Under the pieces are notes generated by a model. The model searched no databases. It had not been told where the DNA came from and saw only the letters and a list, made by a program, of their open reading frames with translations. The position numbers and the translations under genes were made by a program. Shown in pieces: positions 6,086 to 50,355 of a stretch of 64,000 nucleotides of DNA. The stretch lies in the IMG/VR virus record IMGVR_UViG_3300046318_000318. One strand, 5' to 3'. How positions within the stretch are numbered: the first letter of the stretch is position 1; each line of letters begins with the position of its first letter. Source of the stretch: a virus. Lineage: Duplodnaviria > Caudoviricetes.

Positions 6086-9000
6086 TTATTCTTCCACGTA
6101 CTTGGTTTTAAATCCGGTACAGGTGAACATGTGGTTGATGATCTGTATGGGTTTCGTGTTACCGTAAGTAACCAGATTCCTATCCACGATCTCTTTGATA
6201 TCAGAAGGTTTCTCAGCATCCAAGATGTTCCTTGCCATATGGCGCTGAACAAGAGGGTTACCAGATCTATCCAACATCTCAGCCACAGCTTCCCGACCAC
6301 AATACCCCACAAACAAACGACCCTCAGTCTCACCGATGGTCCTGACCGGTGTGTTGCGATAAGGTCTTGCATGCTTTTCACGACGGTTGACCTGAGCCAA
6401 CAATCCATGCAACTGAAGGTTGCCTGTGCTCACAGCTGTCCAGTCGTCAGCGATCTTTTCCAACAGCATCATGTACAGAGGAGCGATCCTTACATTTCTT
6501 TCCGTAGTCACCATTTCACCAGAATTACCACGATAGGTTACCTTACCGTAGACTGGTTTGTAAGGAGACGCCTCTATCCTTTTGACGATCTCTTTGGATG
6601 AGAGCTGTTTGTCAATAGGCACATAGGCATACGCATGGTTAGAGATGATACTGACCATGTGCTCAGCCTGACTCTCTGGTGTTACCATACTTGCGTAGTA
6701 CATGGCTTGTTTGTCTGAGAACAACTTATAGAAGTCCACGACATACTGATGCACGGCTTGTATCTTTTGGATATCGTGCTTAGCCAGTAACTGTTCTGCT
6801 GTCACAGCTGTGGGTGTCAATCGCTCATATCCAAATTGTTGTCTGACGTGCTGGGTGATGTCCCTCAGCGTAGCACTCATGTGCTGTTCATACAACCTAC
6901 CTAAGTTCATGCGGGAGATAGTAGATGCTGCGTCCATCACCACATCCGCACGATTGCCATTTTCGTCCACTGGCATGTTCTCAGGTTCCTCAGTTTTTAC
7001 AACTACGCCTTTCTTATTGTCCAGTAAAGTCGCTCAGCTTCACAGCTTACTCTCTTTACCCGGTGTGCTAAGACACCCGCCTGTACTTTCATACAGGAAC
7101 AGACTATATCTTCATCCTTCCTTTCGGTTAGGATGTCTCCCATTTCGAATCTTGCTAAGATCCTACGCCTTACGGCTAGTCGTTGGCCACACCCCATGTA
7201 AGTATATATGTACATACTTAGTTAGGAGCTTCGGTGCGGATTGCCCATATATCTTTATTAGTTTTACCTTACCTGTGTGATTAGCACAGCCGTTAACTCA
7301 TTTTCATGGTTAAGTTGGTCAATAAAGTTTTGGGGGTTCCCCGGCAATTAGAGAGATTTTTTGTATTTACATTACTGTAAATAGGTGGCAGGATTTTATA
7401 TTTCATTGGTAGTTACCAGACTTATTTCGATGTGTCGATCTAGCTAAGTCTAAAGATATTCTCTGGCCAGGTGGTAAATCCAGTCAGATATCTTAAAATG
7501 TAGTTCTCATATGGGATTTCATGATTATCATCCAAAAGCTCTATGACTTTATTTTGGTCTAGCTTAGTTTGATTTATAAAATCTTGAAAATTCCATACGG
7601 TTTGTTTACGCTCAGTGACATTGTAAACAATTATATCGAAAGTGTTGAACAACGTTTCCTTAAAACCTAAACCGCGAAGTAGTCTTGTTTTAAACTTCTC
7701 ACGGTCTATATTTAGTTGTCTTATCCACTCTTCAATAGGTTGTATTATATCACCGTACTTGACGTTTTGATGGTAGTATCTTACATTCACCATTTGCTCT
7801 CTTGGATTACTCCATTTACAATTAGCTTTGTAATAACCCTTATCGCCGTCTATTCTGTCGAGCGTTGTGTTGTCCGGTCTTGGACCCATATCGTCGTAAA
7901 AGTGCTTGAATGACTTAAGCCAGCTTTCACATATGGTGATCCCGCGTTCACCGTAAAGATGGTATTTTATGTTATTTTTATTAGTGCAACGCTGGATCAT
8001 ATTCTCCCAAGTAGAATATTCCCTGCTTTGCCATAAACCATGCTTTGTTTTATTAGCCTGACGGTAACACCCACAACTTTTATTTGTAGGTCTTTTCAAT
8101 AGAGGTAGACATATATTTTTAATTACGCCGCAATCACACTGGCATTTAAAAATACGCCCGCTCTTACCCATCGGAGCTTCTTCGAGAACTGTTAACATAT
8201 TGAAACGTTGTCCAATATCAATCTTGCTTCTGCTCATTTCATACTCACCTCTTTCTTTTAAATGATTTCAAATCGACACATCTGAAATCTAGGTTGTTGT
8301 TCTACCAATGAACTATAAATTTTTATTTACCACCATGATTATCGGTTAACTTAAACCCTTCGCATGGCTCTATGGTGTACTCAATCACAAACTGGATTTG
8401 ATATTCGTCAACAGATGTTTTCCGTGATTGGAGTTGCAGTGGTTGTTTAAAGCTACTGCTGTTGTGATTGGTTTGCACCATGGCTTCACAGACAAGCTTG
8501 TCAAACTTAGGTGTAGTCAAGATCTCATTTGTGCCAAACTTTGTTCTGTTGTCCTTGCGAAGAGAAATTTCCAGATCGATCACTTTCTTGTAAAAAGATT
8601 GATTGGCCTCATGGTACCTGTTTAGGTAGTGAGACATCTCCACCGGCATATTCTTAACAGGTGCGTTATTGCGAATGACTTTGACATCCACCACCACTCC
8701 ACCCCCACCTCGTACGTAGACAGCTTCGTCAAACATGTGGTCGACTTCCATCAGATCGATACGGGACATCTCTACAGGCGAAAGAGATGTGTTGAAATCT
8801 CTGAACGCCATGAGAATACCATCTTCACGGATCTTGTCACCAATCTCTGGGAAAGGTTTGACCTCGTTGATGGTACCGTAAAGGTTGAGCGGGAATTGTT
8901 TACTACCGAAGTTGACCACTCGGGTGTCATAGATCTTGAACTTAAGCTTAGGCAGAAAGTCCTTAGAGACCATAATACCGTCCTCAGCCACAGACGGAAT

Positions 9001-9513
9001 AGACATCAAAGCGATGTTAGCGTTGATGCCAAACATGAAGTTACCGTTGTCAGAGACAGCTGGCGTGTCCGCAAAGATTGTGTCTTTTTGGATGTAAGCA
9101 CCTGGCTGAAGCTTACCGATGTTCTTCTTGTTAACTTTGTACTTAAAGCCAAAGTTCTGATGGTATTGGGCTTTGTACGGAATGACCAGATAGTCTATCT
9201 GTTTGTTATCTTCACGTTCAAAGAACACATAAGTCTCTGGATTGAAGTTCAAAGACTTGTTACCGATACCTCTTGGGTAGCGATCCATGATGGCGATGAT
9301 GCGGCCATCTTCAGGCATCTTTACGTTAAAGGTATACTTACCGAACTCTTGTTCAAGCCCAGTCTGTACCAGTTTCTCTTGAGCGCCGTCGATCACCAGA
9401 CGCTGACCGATATGTGAAGAGAACATAACTGCTCGTGAGGAGCTGTTATGTGCACAGTAGGCATTCAGACCTTGAATACCTACGAATTCCAGTTTCAGTT
9501 CATTCTTTTGCAT
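6086..9513 (-). CDS. nvRNAP beta subunit, C-terminal part (phiKZ gp71-73-like); spliced exons 9513-8329 and 7012-6086, about 703 aa
   Basis: joining the exons restores GFKLTDNHGG|KGVV (compare GDKxxxRHGxKGV); also SRMNLG and TIGETEGR; the junction is in frame. Confidence 0.9.
7013..8328 (-). mobile_element. group I intron (1316 nt) with an HNH endonuclease ORF in the P1 loop
   Basis: 5' exon GGUGGU pairs with IGS GCCACC (7384-7389) with a terminal U.G; P AAUUGCCGGGG, Q AAUCCGCA, R GCCAACGACUA, S AAGAUAUAGUC; ends in omega-G at 7013. Confidence 0.93.
7440..8237 (-). CDS. intron-encoded HNH-family homing endonuclease
   Basis: EYSTWENMIQRC...GERGITIC...TLDRIDGDKGY...NCKWS pattern of phage HNH endonucleases; AT-rich; inside the intron. 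Confidence 0.88.
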   Translation of the reverse strand: MSRSKIDIGQRFNMLTVLEEAPMGKSGRIFKCQCDCGVIKNICLPLLKRPTNKSCGCYRQANKTKHGLWQSREYSTWENMIQRCTNKNNIKYHLYGERGITICESWLKSFKHFYDDMGPRPDNTTLDRIDGDKGYYKANCKWSNPREQMVNVRYYHQNVKYGDIIQPIEEWIRQLNIDREKFKTRLLRGLGFKETLFNTFDIIVYNVTERKQTVWNFQDFINQTKLDQNKVIELLDDNHEIPYENYILRYLTGFTTWPENIFRLS

Positions 9514-19285: not shown

Positions 19286-22200
19286 TAACTCTCCAACCAA
19301 GATGAGATTGTTGCAATATTAGGCTTTGGGATACTTACGTTACCTGAAACCTGGAACGGCTTAGTCATCTGAAATATGTTAAACTCTGGTGAGAGAGGAT
19401 ACCACATATTAGACATCTTTTCGTCAAGTGAGATAGAGACATTGAGAGCGTCCATAACTACCTCACTCTAGCTTTAACTAAGTTCGCTAAACTTATTGAT
19501 CTTGCTTAAGGATCCTGATACTTTCATATCAGATTAGACTATATCTTCATCTTTCGATGCTCTTCGTTTCCACTCGCTTGAGTGTACTCCCATGTGGGAT
19601 AGTCGTTGACCACACTCCATGTAAGTATATATGTCTATACTTAGTTAGGAGCTTCGGTGCGGATTGCCCAATCCTTGTATCTTTTACCATACCCAGATAG
19701 TTACTCTGGCCACTGCATATATTTCTATCGCAGTTTGGTGCACAAGGCTCTAAGGAGTTTCCCGCAATTAGAAGAGTTTAAACGACGGCAACACTCTACC
19801 GTCAAAATCAGCATTTGGCTTATTGTCCAGTAAAGTCGCTCAGCTTCACAGCTTACCCTCTTTACCCGGTGCGCTTACACACCCACCTGTACTTTCATAC
19901 AGGAACAGATCATATCTTCATCCTTATTAAAGGATGCTCTCCGCTTCTTCCCTGCTTAGGGCTTTACTCGGTCGCAACTCCGATGATCGTTGAACTTTAC
20001 GCATGGTTGATAAGAATCAACTTTAGCGTCTTAGCTGCTGATTACCCAATTCTTATATTTTTCAAACTATCACGCTCATCGTTTCCGATCACGTTGTAGT
20101 ATATAAGACTCTAAAGGACTTCCCAGCAATTCAAAGAGATAACTTAGTCAATTACTCAACTAAGTGCCTTATCTCATCATTATTAAAATACAATGTCAAT
20201 CGCCACACACCGCCTATCAATGCTTTTCTTCTAGCTATTGTAGGGATATATTGTCTAGCATACCCAAATTGCTGACTAATATCTATAGGACTTGTTATAA
20301 TCCTAGTTTCGCCAGTTTCAACGTTTTCGATAAAATATCCGTTACCCCTAAAAGATCTTTTATCGAGACATAATTGTTTAAAGTACCTCAGCTCCTTATC
20401 GGTAAGATCTTTAAACTGTCCGTTGAAACTAAATTGCCAACCTTTAATCGGAATGTTCTTTAATCTTTTATTTTTAATAGATAGTTGAACACCCCATGAA
20501 ACACCAGTTATTTTCTCACAAGCTGCCAGCGATTCAAATTTACGTTCTTTGCGTGTGAATATATTTCTAGCAGTAACTGGTATTTTTATTTGTAAATCTT
20601 CTAAGGATGGTTTTTCCTGAGGCCATGGTCTTGCATCTAATTTTCGTTTGAAACATAATCCGTCTGAATAGATTTTAATATCGGAAGATCTAAGTCTGAC
20701 GGACACGGTTAGTTCAGAATATCCAAGTTTCAGAGAGCAATCCCTAGCACTTTTATATTCAGTCACCTCATCCGTGATTATGTTTTTAACAAGTATTGCT
20801 GAACCATACCTGAATTGATCGTACTCATTTTCTAAATTTTCATAATTTTTCCATTCTTTTAATTCAGATAGCCATTGAAACTGCATGTAATTTTCCCAAA
20901 GTTTACAACCGGGTTTTGTTTTTAACCGATGGTAAAGTAAATCATTACTCAAGCCTAATGCAATTGCGCATTGCGTCGGGTTATCATAAATAGTGATTTC
21001 ATTGGTTTTAACATTTCTAGTTATGACGTCTATGGTATACTTTTTCTCATTTTCAAGAATTCTATTTACTTTTTCATCAGATCTATCACAATTCGAATAA
21101 ATGACATTTCCTCTAGGTGTCACCCATTCTAAATTATCTAAGGTGTCAAAGCCAGGTATCTCATTTTTATGATTTACGTACAGCGATTCAACGTTTCTAG
21201 GATAATCTAGCCATGCTAAGCACATAGCTCTGTGTCTGAAAAATTTGTAAGATGTATTCTCATTAAGGGAAACATCAGGAATACCTGAATAGGAATGGTA
21301 ACCATCTCTATCACAAAAAGCTTTTTTATCCACACCAGTTATCAAATTTCTAACTTTTCCTTCCTTTGTTATACCATATCTTGTAAAACCAGGAATATAA
21401 GCATGATCTTTGTGTACTGGATGTGATAAACCAACTGGAAATTTCCAAATCAAGTTGCTAGGATGAGAGTTATTAAAATCACCGTCCTCGAACATCAAGT
21501 GTAATAAATGCACTTGACTTTCATGAACGTGAACGGGCTTAAAAGCCGAAGCTATGATAAACTCTATTGGATATAGACCAGGACCTCTTATCCAATCTAA
21601 GAAAATCAAAGTGCTTCCTGTTTCAGTTGAGATACACTCAATCTGAATGTTCTCTCGCGATATGACATCACCTTCTGAGTTAACAGAATAACGACCGTCA
21701 GACCAGGGTAGCGAAAGATAGTTTTGGGTTTGTAAATATTTACTAAGCATATATCCTTTCTATATAGAAAGGTATGCTAAACGGCGATTGACAATAATGA
21801 TAAGAATTAAGCGCGCACTGTTAAAATGTGCATTCCAATAGTGAGGTCATTTGGGTTCTTTTTGAACTTAGTAATCTTCACTCGTTGAGCCGACCCCTGC
21901 AAAAGGCTCGGATTTCTTTGGAGACATACATACAAACCTTTATCAGGCGCTTCGTCTATCAGCTCCTGCATAAACCTTTCTAACAAGGGGTGGTGTTTGT
22001 TAGTATGTTTGTATAGGAAACCAATAGAGTCATTCAGACCCATGCCGTAACGCCGCAGCTTATTCAACATGTGGATACGGTAAGCTGTGGTGGCCATACA
22101 CCAAGGAGCTTCTATTTCATCATACTCTTTACCCGCTGTAATAGAGATGATAACTGCTCGGAATGAGAAGTTGGTTCTGGCTCCGAACATGTGTTTCCTG

Positions 22201-23195: not shown

Positions 23196-25064
23196 TCAGT
23201 AGCGGTAACCACCCATGTTGATGTAGTTCTGCATATGCTGAGGAGCCATGCCGAAACCCATGAACGATTGAGTAGGTGCCAGCAGACCAGCGTTGGCGAA
23301 ACTTGCAACACCGCGTTGGTTGTTGAAGTCTGCACCAGACATTGGGCTGTTGATACGCACCATCAGGTTGCAAGCCTGAATACCCTTACGCAGAGCGTCC
23401 AGGAACGTAGCGCTGAAGGTCACTCGTTGAGCATAGCCTGTAAACACAGCGGACTCATTGGACATGCTGGAGATCATACGCTTGCGATCGGAGAGACGCT
23501 CTGCCAACGAGATGTTGGTGTTCAGGTACGTTTCGGTGAACTGACGCAATGCATGCACATTGTTGGCACCAAGGATGTTGGCAGCTGCCAAGTAGTCGAT
23601 GTCACGGATGTCACGCTGAGCACCGTTGCGATCGGTGTAGTAACCCAGATGGACACGGTTACCCACATCCACGAACATCTGTGCGTTGTTCGGGAAATAG
23701 CGACCGAAGTTGCCAGCAGTCAGTTCCTGAGCAGCTTTGTACATGATGTCGTAAGCACCACCACCGCTTGCAGCAGCTGCACTGTACAGACCAGTATACC
23801 ATGCCTGAGGACCAGCTTCTGGGCAGTCAACAGCAACCATCAGACCAGGCTGAACCAGAGTGTTCAAGAACTGACCCAAGTTCTCAGTCGTAAAACTGGA
23901 AGACTTGGTGTCGAGGATGTTGCTGATACCAGTGGGTTGATTGTCAAAGTTGCCTTCGATGTTCAACGCACCTGCATCACGCAGATCCAAATCCTTAGTC
24001 ATCTGGGGTCGGAAGATCTGGTAGTAGTTGTTGTTCAACGCCAGAGCATCCATGTTCGCCACTGCCAACAGCATGTTAGCTGGAGTGTATGCGTGAGCAC
24101 TGGACAGAGTGGTGATCACAGCACGAGCTGCAAACTTCTGTGGCAAACGCTGTTGTGCAGGCATGTAGGGGTTGACCATGGGTTCACGAGGAGCCCAGAG
24201 CATTTCTACAAAGCCGCCAACTTCACTGATGCGAGTCTCACGACCGCCGCTGTTCAGACTGCGGTTCTGATTTTGGTTCTGATTGTTCTGAGCTGCAAAG
24301 CTCAGTTGGAAGTCAGAACGAATCAAGTTACCGACATCGTCAGCCACAGGTGTCGAACCAAAGGTCATGTTGATGACCAATTGTTGACCCGTAGGGATCT
24401 GCGACAGGTTCAGATCCTGGAACGTAGGAACCAGTTGAGACAACTCAGTACCGTTAGCCAAGCCAGCGTTCAGTGCCAGCTTATACACAGCAGCTTTGTC
24501 CTTCGTATTGAAAGTAGCTGGTACGACAGTGGCGTCGGTGAACCGCAGTTCGTGCTGAGGAAACGCACGACCAACAGCCGCCTTGGCTTTTGCAATCAAG
24601 ATGTCGTCGAGAGCATCGCCCGCTACCCGATACAACTCGATTTGCTTTTGGTGGTGGTACTGCACCACAGGAGTGGGTTTGTCACCAGTTGCTTCGAGGA
24701 TCAGCACATGGAATGCTACCTTGTTAGGTACATCCTTCAGACGCATCGCCACGACCAGGCAAGAGAATGCCAGAGCCGTTTCGTTCTGGTTGTCCAGATC
24801 CAGAATGCTGATCAGACTGTCAGAACTTGCGTTCTTGTAGATCTCAATAAGTGCGGTCTTGAGGTCGTTGTAAGCCTCAGACCCAATTGAGCGACCGATA
24901 GGGGCACCGAAGATGTTACCGCCGGAACCGAAGTTCCAAGAAGATTTCACAGGTGCTTGTTGGGTAGCAGTAGCTGCTTGACCAGGAGAACCGGCTTGGG
25001 TGAAAGCGGTTGCTTCAGCAGAGGTTGCAGAAGCGGAAGAGTTGTTACCAGTATTGAGAGCCAT
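23196..25064 (-). CDS. chmA: chimallin, major phage-nucleus shell protein
   Basis: 622 aa, strongly biased codons, low-complexity N-terminus, directly upstream of the gp55-like beta-prime gene as phiKZ gp54 is; assigned by synteny and size. Confidence 0.8.
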   Translation of the reverse strand: MALNTGNNSSASATSAEATAFTQAGSPGQAATATQQAPVKSSWNFGSGGNIFGAPIGRSIGSEAYNDLKTALIEIYKNASSDSLISILDLDNQNETALAFSCLVVAMRLKDVPNKVAFHVLILEATGDKPTPVVQYHHQKQIELYRVAGDALDDILIAKAKAAVGRAFPQHELRFTDATVVPATFNTKDKAAVYKLALNAGLANGTELSQLVPTFQDLNLSQIPTGQQLVINMTFGSTPVADDVGNLIRSDFQLSFAAQNNQNQNQNRSLNSGGRETRISEVGGFVEMLWAPREPMVNPYMPAQQRLPQKFAARAVITTLSSAHAYTPANMLLAVANMDALALNNNYYQIFRPQMTKDLDLRDAGALNIEGNFDNQPTGISNILDTKSSSFTTENLGQFLNTLVQPGLMVAVDCPEAGPQAWYTGLYSAAAASGGGAYDIMYKAAQELTAGNFGRYFPNNAQMFVDVGNRVHLGYYTDRNGAQRDIRDIDYLAAANILGANNVHALRQFTETYLNTNISLAERLSDRKRMISSMSNESAVFTGYAQRVTFSATFLDALRKGIQACNLMVRINSPMSGADFNNQRGVASFANAGLLAPTQSFMGFGMAPQHMQNYINMGGYRY

Positions 25065-50046: not shown

Positions 50047-50355
50047 TGGCCCGCTCCGGAATCGAACCGGAACGCCCCTTACGAAAGCGTCAGATTTTAA
50101 GTCTGATCTCTACCACTGCAGTTTTCACTGCCACTTTAGTGTGTTTGTGGTCTGGACTATCCCTTCAACTACATCCTAAATGTTTAGCTGGGCGATTATA
50201 GTCTCTGCACGTCTTTCTATATTTCTATAGAAATTTCGCTCAGGATTGGCATCAGCAATTAACTGTTAAGCTTTCCCTGAATTTACGCCATTTTACTACA
50301 TTATTTCTAATGTAGGACACATCAAATATATGTCTACCTATTTCATCAGCGGGCC
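50047..50355 (-). tRNA. tRNA-Leu(UAA), interrupted at 25/26; exons 50355-50330 and 50107-50047; CCA not encoded
   Basis: spliced cloverleaf with acceptor GGCCCGC/GCGGGCC, anticodon arm UCAGA-CUUAAAA-UCUGA and a long variable arm. Confidence 0.9.
50108..50329 (-). mobile_element. group I intron, IC3-like (222 nt), at the D-stem/anticodon-stem junction
   Basis: P1 GACAU|/GUGUC with U.G; P10 UUGAU pairs with 3' exon AUCAG; GUAAAUUCAGGGAAAGC, GCCAAUCCUGAGCG, GCAGAGACUA, AAGGGAUAGUCC; omega-G at 50108. Confidence 0.92.

Follow-up and report, generated by a model that had tools for sequence, protein, structure and literature searches.

A 21-nucleotide exon between two group I introns in the catalytic-motif codons of a phage RNA polymerase gene

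The closest described counterpart of the locus considered here is the split gene gp55/gp56/gp56.1 of phage phiKZ. It lies directly downstream of the chimallin gene, and a group I intron (Rfam 75.6 bits) with the HNH open reading frame (ORF) gp56 is inserted inside the codons for NADFDGD, the Mg-binding motif of the polymerase. The products of gp55 and gp56.1 have been solved as a fused protein (PDB 7OGP). Introns in RNA polymerase genes of phiKZ bearing the HNH ORFs gp56, gp72 and gp179 were predicted in 2002, as cited in PMC10914365. The locus in question is the orthologous gene on a DNA stretch of 64,000 nucleotides from a virus of the Caudoviricetes (IMG/VR record IMGVR_UViG_3300046318_000318), here called the window. 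It also lies directly downstream of chimallin and is also interrupted within the NADFDGD-coding block. However, phiKZ has one intron, located after the AAT codon (between N and ADFDGD), and no micro-exon, whereas the window gene has two introns, located before PN and after DFDG, with a 21-nucleotide exon between them.

Other systems share some of these features. PhiPA3 gp210 (Birkholz et al. 2024, PMC11620839) belongs to a mobile group I intron that resides in a chimallivirus RNA polymerase gene, next to codons for catalytic Asp residues, and encodes an HNH protein. This protein is a nicking endonuclease that acts in competition between co-infecting phages (PMC11620839). The PhiPA3 gene encodes the virion RNA polymerase beta subunit and has a single intron, and endonuclease activity was demonstrated there, whereas the HNH protein of the window is a prediction. 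Several group I introns per phage gene are found in Twort orf142, SIOphi and the phiNIT1 rNDPL gene (PMC11878797, PMC3073962). In phiNIT1, a small exon between two introns was found only by complementary DNA sequencing, and both small exons between introns and exon skipping are reported from Bastillevirinae and Twort (PMC11878797). These differ from the window gene in being tail, terminase, polymerase and reductase genes of Herelleviridae, and in none of them does the small exon encode the metal-binding motif of an enzyme. In fungal mitochondrial genes such as cox1, mini-exons of fewer than about four highly conserved codons lie between self-splicing introns; they are routine in these genomes and a known annotation problem (PMC10352661). 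Unlike the window locus, these examples are organellar, involve group I or group II introns of other subgroups, and use LAGLIDADG or GIY-YIG rather than HNH endonucleases. Our literature search found no paper on micro-exons in the NADFDGD block or on an insertion hot spot there. The window gene is a genuine and extreme example of what mobile introns are known to do, rather than a new kind of system.

All parts of the split gene are on the minus strand. Exon 1 (23051-21810) has 414 codons ending in MHILTVRA; its 3' end is GCG CGC GCT at 21810, with TAA as the following codon. Intron 1 (21809-19819) is a group I intron of 1991 nucleotides, with its 5' splice site after U21810 and G19819 as its terminal base. 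It is followed by the micro-exon (19818-19798), CCAAATGCTGATTTTGACGGT, whose codons CCA AAT GCT GAT TTT GAC GGT specify PNADFDG and which ends in T. Intron 2 (19797-19453) is an ORF-less group I intron of 345 nucleotides that ends in G19453. Exon 3 (19452-19285) begins with GAC GCT CTC (DALNV) and contributes 55 codons and a stop. The intron insertions are located 3 nucleotides before and 18 nucleotides into the NADFDGD-coding block. Asp418 and Asp420 are encoded on the micro-exon, and the third catalytic residue, Asp422, is the first codon of exon 3. An earlier note made from the DNA letters alone had given the same coordinates, intron lengths and micro-exon sequence, which hold to the base. 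It had also described group I introns on either side of an exon encoding two of the three catalytic Asp residues, and both introns do match the Rfam model above its threshold (see below). Its statement that the equivalent phiKZ gene has an intron is correct as well, since gp55 is split within the same motif.

When the three exons are joined, they encode a 476-amino-acid protein reading ...ILTVRAPNADFDGDALNV..., in which the Mg-binding NADFDGD is in register with homologues. One check proposed earlier was alignment of the spliced protein through this motif, and the joined protein does align without gaps there to the uninterrupted FLC9 gp381 (41% identity) and to ORF287 of Ralstonia phage RP12. 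Taken with the RNA joints and Rfam matches given below, an arrangement of two introns and a 21-nucleotide exon with these properties cannot be a chance pattern. An intein or a frameshift was considered and rejected, as the intervening sequences are ribozymes with stops in all frames beside the exons. We give a probability of about 0.9 to the reading in which two independent group I introns splice out of the transcript and the three exons ligate to yield a normal subunit with an intact Mg-binding motif.

Parts of the locus are present in two freshwater metatranscriptome runs, which were examined as assembled contigs. A 336-nucleotide RNA contig from run X20 (depth 19.8) carries exon 1, the micro-exon and exon 3 in this order, joined at exactly the predicted bases. 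It passes from 19452 to 19798, skipping 345 nucleotides, and from 19818 to 21810, skipping 1991 nucleotides. Over its exon 1 part (21810-21984, 175 nucleotides) it has one mismatch to the window. Neither splice joint is found in DNA runs X1 and X6, where the intron-containing form is present at 82x and 27x, respectively. RNA depth drops to 1.5 across the boundary between exon 1 and intron 1, with both the exons and the intron interior covered. In this contig of environmental RNA, both introns are excised exactly and the micro-exon is retained. Junction RNA at 21810/19818 and 19798/19452 had been suggested as a further check in the earlier note, and the X20 contig contains both joints, so that this check does not refute the arrangement.

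The introns were compared with the Rfam group I model RF00028, which has a curated gathering threshold of 50 bits. Intron 2 scores 83.7 bits at 19807-19515, spanning the full model (1-253). Its guide (19797-19784) has the P10 strand AGAGUGUU first and then the P1 strand GCCGUC. The latter pairs with GACGGU, the last six bases of the micro-exon, which serve as the 5' strand of P1 and place a U19798.G19789 wobble at the splice site. Exon 3 opens with GACGCUCU, and these eight bases form an eight-base-pair P10 with AGAGUGUU. A thermodynamic fold of intron 2 recovers P1 and P3 with z = -2.5. Among 20 introns at the same site in relatives, exons with GAC occur with the guide G(C/U)(C/U)GUC, and exons with GAU occur with GCCAUC in six of six cases; the exon base with which the guide covaries perfectly is the synonymous third base of the Asp codon. 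In relative L003, P10 has a compensatory change from G-C to A-U. With these P1 and P10 pairings, a U.G pair at the splice site and a terminal G, the guide layout of intron 2 is that of a textbook group I intron.

The core of intron 1 scores 68.7 bits at 20196-19886. Within this intron is a 532-amino-acid ORF (21750-20152, minus strand) for a predicted homing endonuclease, which matches the PHROGs HNH endonuclease family phrog_59 (E 8.5e-15) and phrog_959 (E 4e-12). Its motif VNHKN...NLEWVT aligns weakly to residues 12-105 of I-HmuI (1U3E, E 0.3), and a weak match to NUMOD1 falls below threshold. The product is predicted on these grounds to be an I-HmuI-like homing endonuclease. The ORF is looped out of an extension of P1, a long-range helix whose 5' strand is at 21783-21805 and whose 3' strand, together with the guide, is at 20164-20204 within the last codons of the ORF (both on the minus strand). 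This helix has 23 base pairs, formed by 21805-21793 with 20172-20184 and by 21792-21783 with 20195-20204. The duplex has a predicted stability of -39.1 kcal/mol, whereas 150 control windows taken within the intron reached -22.6 kcal/mol at best. The stop codon of the ORF resides in the P2 loop, and a hairpin read from the sequence at 21772-21755 covers its ribosome-binding site.

The long-range helix sets the guide of intron 1, GGCAC (20168-20164), against the end of exon 1. The resulting P1 consists of the wobble G20168.U21810, the pairs G20167-C21811 and C20166-G21812, an A20165/C21813 mismatch, and the pair C20164-G21814. The minimum-free-energy duplex favors an alternative register that lacks a U.G pair at the splice site. 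The canonical register was kept because relative L003 has a clean P1 of five uninterrupted base pairs at this site (GUGCU/GGCAU), and because the RNA junction falls exactly after U21810.

These features suggest how the gene would be expressed. Intron 1 would be a mobile form, with its HNH gene looped from the P1 extension and its guide written in the last codons of that gene, and its spread would presumably be driven by HNH-dependent homing. The guide of intron 2 pairs with the end of the micro-exon in P1 and with the start of exon 3 in P10. Each ribozyme would then remove itself, probably without protein help and independently of the other, and the three exons would be ligated into an mRNA for the 476-amino-acid subunit. 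Repeated invasion of a hot spot would have left the gene with one endonuclease-bearing and one ORF-less intron.

Several observations weigh against this reading. The RNA support for splicing comes from one assembled contig of an environmental sample, and a near-identical intron-less DNA variant might conceivably have contaminated the RNA library. A related sequence that looks intron-less (GCG...GGC) is in fact present in RNA run X24. For the homologous phiKZ intron, Oxford Nanopore (ONT) transcriptomics yielded no splicing reads (PMC10914365), even though the joined protein is present in the solved enzyme. The P1 of intron 1 is weak in the window, with three base pairs, a C.A mismatch and one further pair. 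Finally, no P10 was found for intron 1, as the bases 5' of its guide do not pair with CCAAAUGC.

The X24 contig comes from a relative with 95-99% similarity and ends at window position 21814. It reads GCG CCA AAT GCT GAT TTC GAT GGC GAC without interruption, with GCG in place of GCT before CCA and GGC in place of GGT before GAC. It therefore lacks the splice-site U at both positions, and for this reason probably represents an allele without introns from the same habitat and a candidate natural target for the introns.

The possibility that the X20 contig also stems from an intron-less strain, either as carried-over DNA or as its mRNA, would mean that the introns of the window remain unspliced and that the gene is broken. 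Metatranscriptomes can contain DNA, intron regions of the locus also have depth in the RNA library, and an uninterrupted relative is at hand in run X24. Nonetheless, we regard this explanation as very improbable. The contig is nearly identical to the window over exon 1, and two deep DNA runs from the same habitat lack the joined form. Both introns score as complete ribozymes, and P1 and P10 covary with the exons across lineages, for which selection for splicing is the only explanation. A broken copy would also be unexpected because chimalliviruses cannot do without the non-virion RNA polymerase beta-prime gene. The earlier note had raised a different alternative, in which exon 1 is joined to exon 3 without PNADFDG to produce a catalytically dead subunit as a possible regulator; such a subunit could also be dominant-negative. 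This skip does keep the reading frame, and group I introns of phages are documented to skip exons in Twort orf142 and also in SIOphi, whose skipped products are plentiful (PMC11878797, PMC3073962). However, the joint 19452 to 21810 does not occur in the contigs of either RNA run, which cannot show rare forms, and the sole junction contig retains the micro-exon. The guide of intron 2, GCCGUC, lacks complementarity to the end of exon 1 (GCGCGCU), and the two introns do not share the same 3' terminal domain. Furthermore, in-frame skipping is not conserved in relatives with other intron combinations, including those with out-of-frame 11-nucleotide micro-exons. Regulated skipping is quite unlikely on this evidence, and nothing indicates a regulatory role for a skipped product.

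The order of splicing needs separate consideration, as 21 nucleotides might be too few to serve both ribozymes at once and splicing might then be obligatorily ordered or cooperative. The two catalytic cores are only about 90 nucleotides apart in the RNA, and in relatives with 9-nucleotide micro-exons the P1 of the downstream intron uses six of the nine nucleotides. In the window, however, the sequence needs of the introns do not overlap. Intron 2 requires the last six nucleotides of the micro-exon (16-21) and exon 3, whereas the pairing partners of intron 1 are exon 1 and its own sequence, with no detected pairing to the micro-exon. The claim that the introns must fold and splice in order is therefore not supported, since no order is required, and an obligatory order seems unlikely, if less so than skipping. 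Independent removal of the two introns remains the preferred reading.

Related metagenomic phages have further variations of this arrangement. A 201-kb contig with 97% nucleotide identity to the window (L004) has the same micro-exon and the same intron 2. Its intron 1 occupies the same site and is ORF-less, with a length of 357 nucleotides and a short hairpin where the window has the HNH ORF. ORF-bearing and ORF-less versions of intron 1 thus occur in phages that are 97% identical, which is indirect evidence of homing. Four loci with 77-82% protein identity (L003, L007, L008 and L010) have four introns, and in these the 21 nucleotides are further split into CCAAATGCTGAT (12 nucleotides) and TTTGATGGT (9 nucleotides). 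Exon 3 is 89-98% identical in L003, L004 and L007.

An additional ORF-less group I intron is found between the LQRN and PS codons in L004 (7141-7458) and L003 (7144-7513), and is missing from the window. Its site is 102 nucleotides upstream of the site of intron 1. The window and L004 differ at four residues of the 34-codon exon between these two sites, as against 99.5% identity over the 380 codons before it. The divergent stretch may be a co-conversion tract.

A wider metagenome scan recovered 80 loci at 33-82% identity. The motif is contiguous in 32 of these and interrupted in most of the others. Splice models for these loci were curated by hand and checked by translation, and those of 20 loci were also checked by Rfam. 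The models kept were parsimonious, agreed with the Rfam intron number and translated cleanly. An automatic exon-chain solver gave many spurious solutions made of 2-4-nucleotide segments, and was set aside. In the models listed, T is the last base of each 5' exon and G the last base of each intron. Counting the first base of the Asn codon as 1, introns are inserted after positions -5, -3, 3 (the phiKZ site), 6, 9, 11, 15, 18 and 21. Related phages therefore carry from zero to four introns here, at no fewer than nine points within about 26 nucleotides.

Micro-exons of 21, 15, 12, 11 and 9 nucleotides result from these insertions. Lineages with 33-49% identity to the window phage have micro-exons of 12 nucleotides (DFDG, in seven loci), 9 nucleotides (FDG), 15 nucleotides, or 11 plus 9 nucleotides. 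In one locus (L013, 2040-2510), exon 1 stops at CVKS and the next recognizable piece is GACTTCGACGGT (DFDG). The codons for L-N-A were not located at this locus, and Rfam finds only two introns in it, such that the copy could be defective, use a shifted splice site or contain one more tiny exon. Comparison of these loci suggests that the arrangement in the window is best explained by mobile group I introns having invaded a hot spot time and again.

The identity of the interrupted gene is indicated by exon 1, which matches phrog_2987 (RNA polymerase subunit, E 1.4e-115), phiKZ gp55 (29% identity, E 5e-64) and chain A of 7OGP, the solved phiKZ non-virion RNA polymerase (E 2.3e-54). A Pfam scan recognized neither exon 1 nor exon 3, although PHROGs and PDB did match exon 1. 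By these similarities, the gene is assigned as the phiKZ gp55 orthologue, which encodes the N-terminal beta-prime subunit of the non-virion RNA polymerase. Retrieved homologues appear as 'hypothetical proteins' of 380-425 amino acids that are truncated and lack the catalytic motif.

The gene directly upstream of exon 1 (23196-25064, minus strand, 622 amino acids) encodes chimallin, the shell protein of the phage nucleus, and not a capsid protein; its counterpart in the near-identical contig L004 matches PF25677. The G+C-rich chimallin coding region gives rise to a 617-amino-acid shadow ORF on the opposite strand. Downstream of the split gene are four small genes and then SbcD, an order shared with FLC9 and phiKZ, and the end of the split gene matches the synteny with FLC9 gp381/gp380. 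Because of its chimallin gene and this gene order, the window is assigned to an uncultured nucleus-forming jumbo phage. The sequence is found in sequencing runs from freshwater metagenomes. The nearest isolate is Burkholderia phage FLC9, yet a megablast search of the gene region against phage isolates gave a single 41-nucleotide match and no close isolate.

Three further group I introns lie elsewhere in the window. The RNA polymerase beta-like gene (6086-9513, minus strand), an orthologue of phiKZ gp71/73, is also split, with exons at 9513-8323 and 6976-6086. Its group I intron (Rfam 81 bits at 7407-7080) carries an HNH ORF (8237-7440; phrog_374, E 2.7e-55). Over 107 nucleotides this intron is 93% identical to the 3' part of beta-prime intron 1; its identity to the core of intron 2 is 86% over 100 nucleotides. 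Given such shared segments, the introns of this genome look like recombinant mosaics. Two more introns on the minus strand are located at 36974-37227 (Rfam 87.7 bits), just upstream of a 212-amino-acid ORF with a weak QueC-like match, and at 50131-50339 (Rfam 59.7 bits), just 3' of a 166-amino-acid HNH ORF (50867-50367). In total, five introns score above the Rfam threshold in 64 kb. DNA depth at the cores of the beta-prime introns (19593-20116) is 2-4 times that of the flanking gene (242-366 versus 82 in run X1), and many metagenome contigs break or rejoin in this interval. Similar intron cores are therefore present in many copies or genomes of the community.

The recognition site of I-HmuI-like enzymes extends into the 3' exon. 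The suggestion made in the earlier note that each intron alters the homing site of the other is plausible by analogy with such enzymes. A more speculative proposal, which we consider doubtful, is that the stacking of introns in the NADFDGD codons has been selected in competition between co-infecting nucleus-forming phages, beyond mere parasitism. Resident introns, ORF-less ones included, would then break the sites of rival intron endonucleases and immunize an essential polymerase gene, while an HNH-bearing intron would attack intron-less competitors. The dense cluster of insertion points would be the record of an arms race, and exon-skipped or half-spliced products, present in minor amounts, could contribute a dominant-negative effect as well.

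The locus has consequences for annotation, RNA biology and phage ecology. Gene callers miss a 21-nucleotide exon and therefore report a truncated polymerase subunit without its catalytic motif. Group I ribozymes can work with exons as short as 21 nucleotides in viral mRNA, and probably with exons of 9-12 nucleotides in the relatives, and covariation of their guide sequences reveals the bases that each ribozyme needs. The active-site loop of the chimallivirus non-virion RNA polymerase appears to be a hot spot of repeated intron invasion. Such a hot spot is consistent with the demonstration that an intron endonuclease can serve as a weapon among jumbo phages, and it supplies many natural combinations of alleles for tests of homing and immunity.

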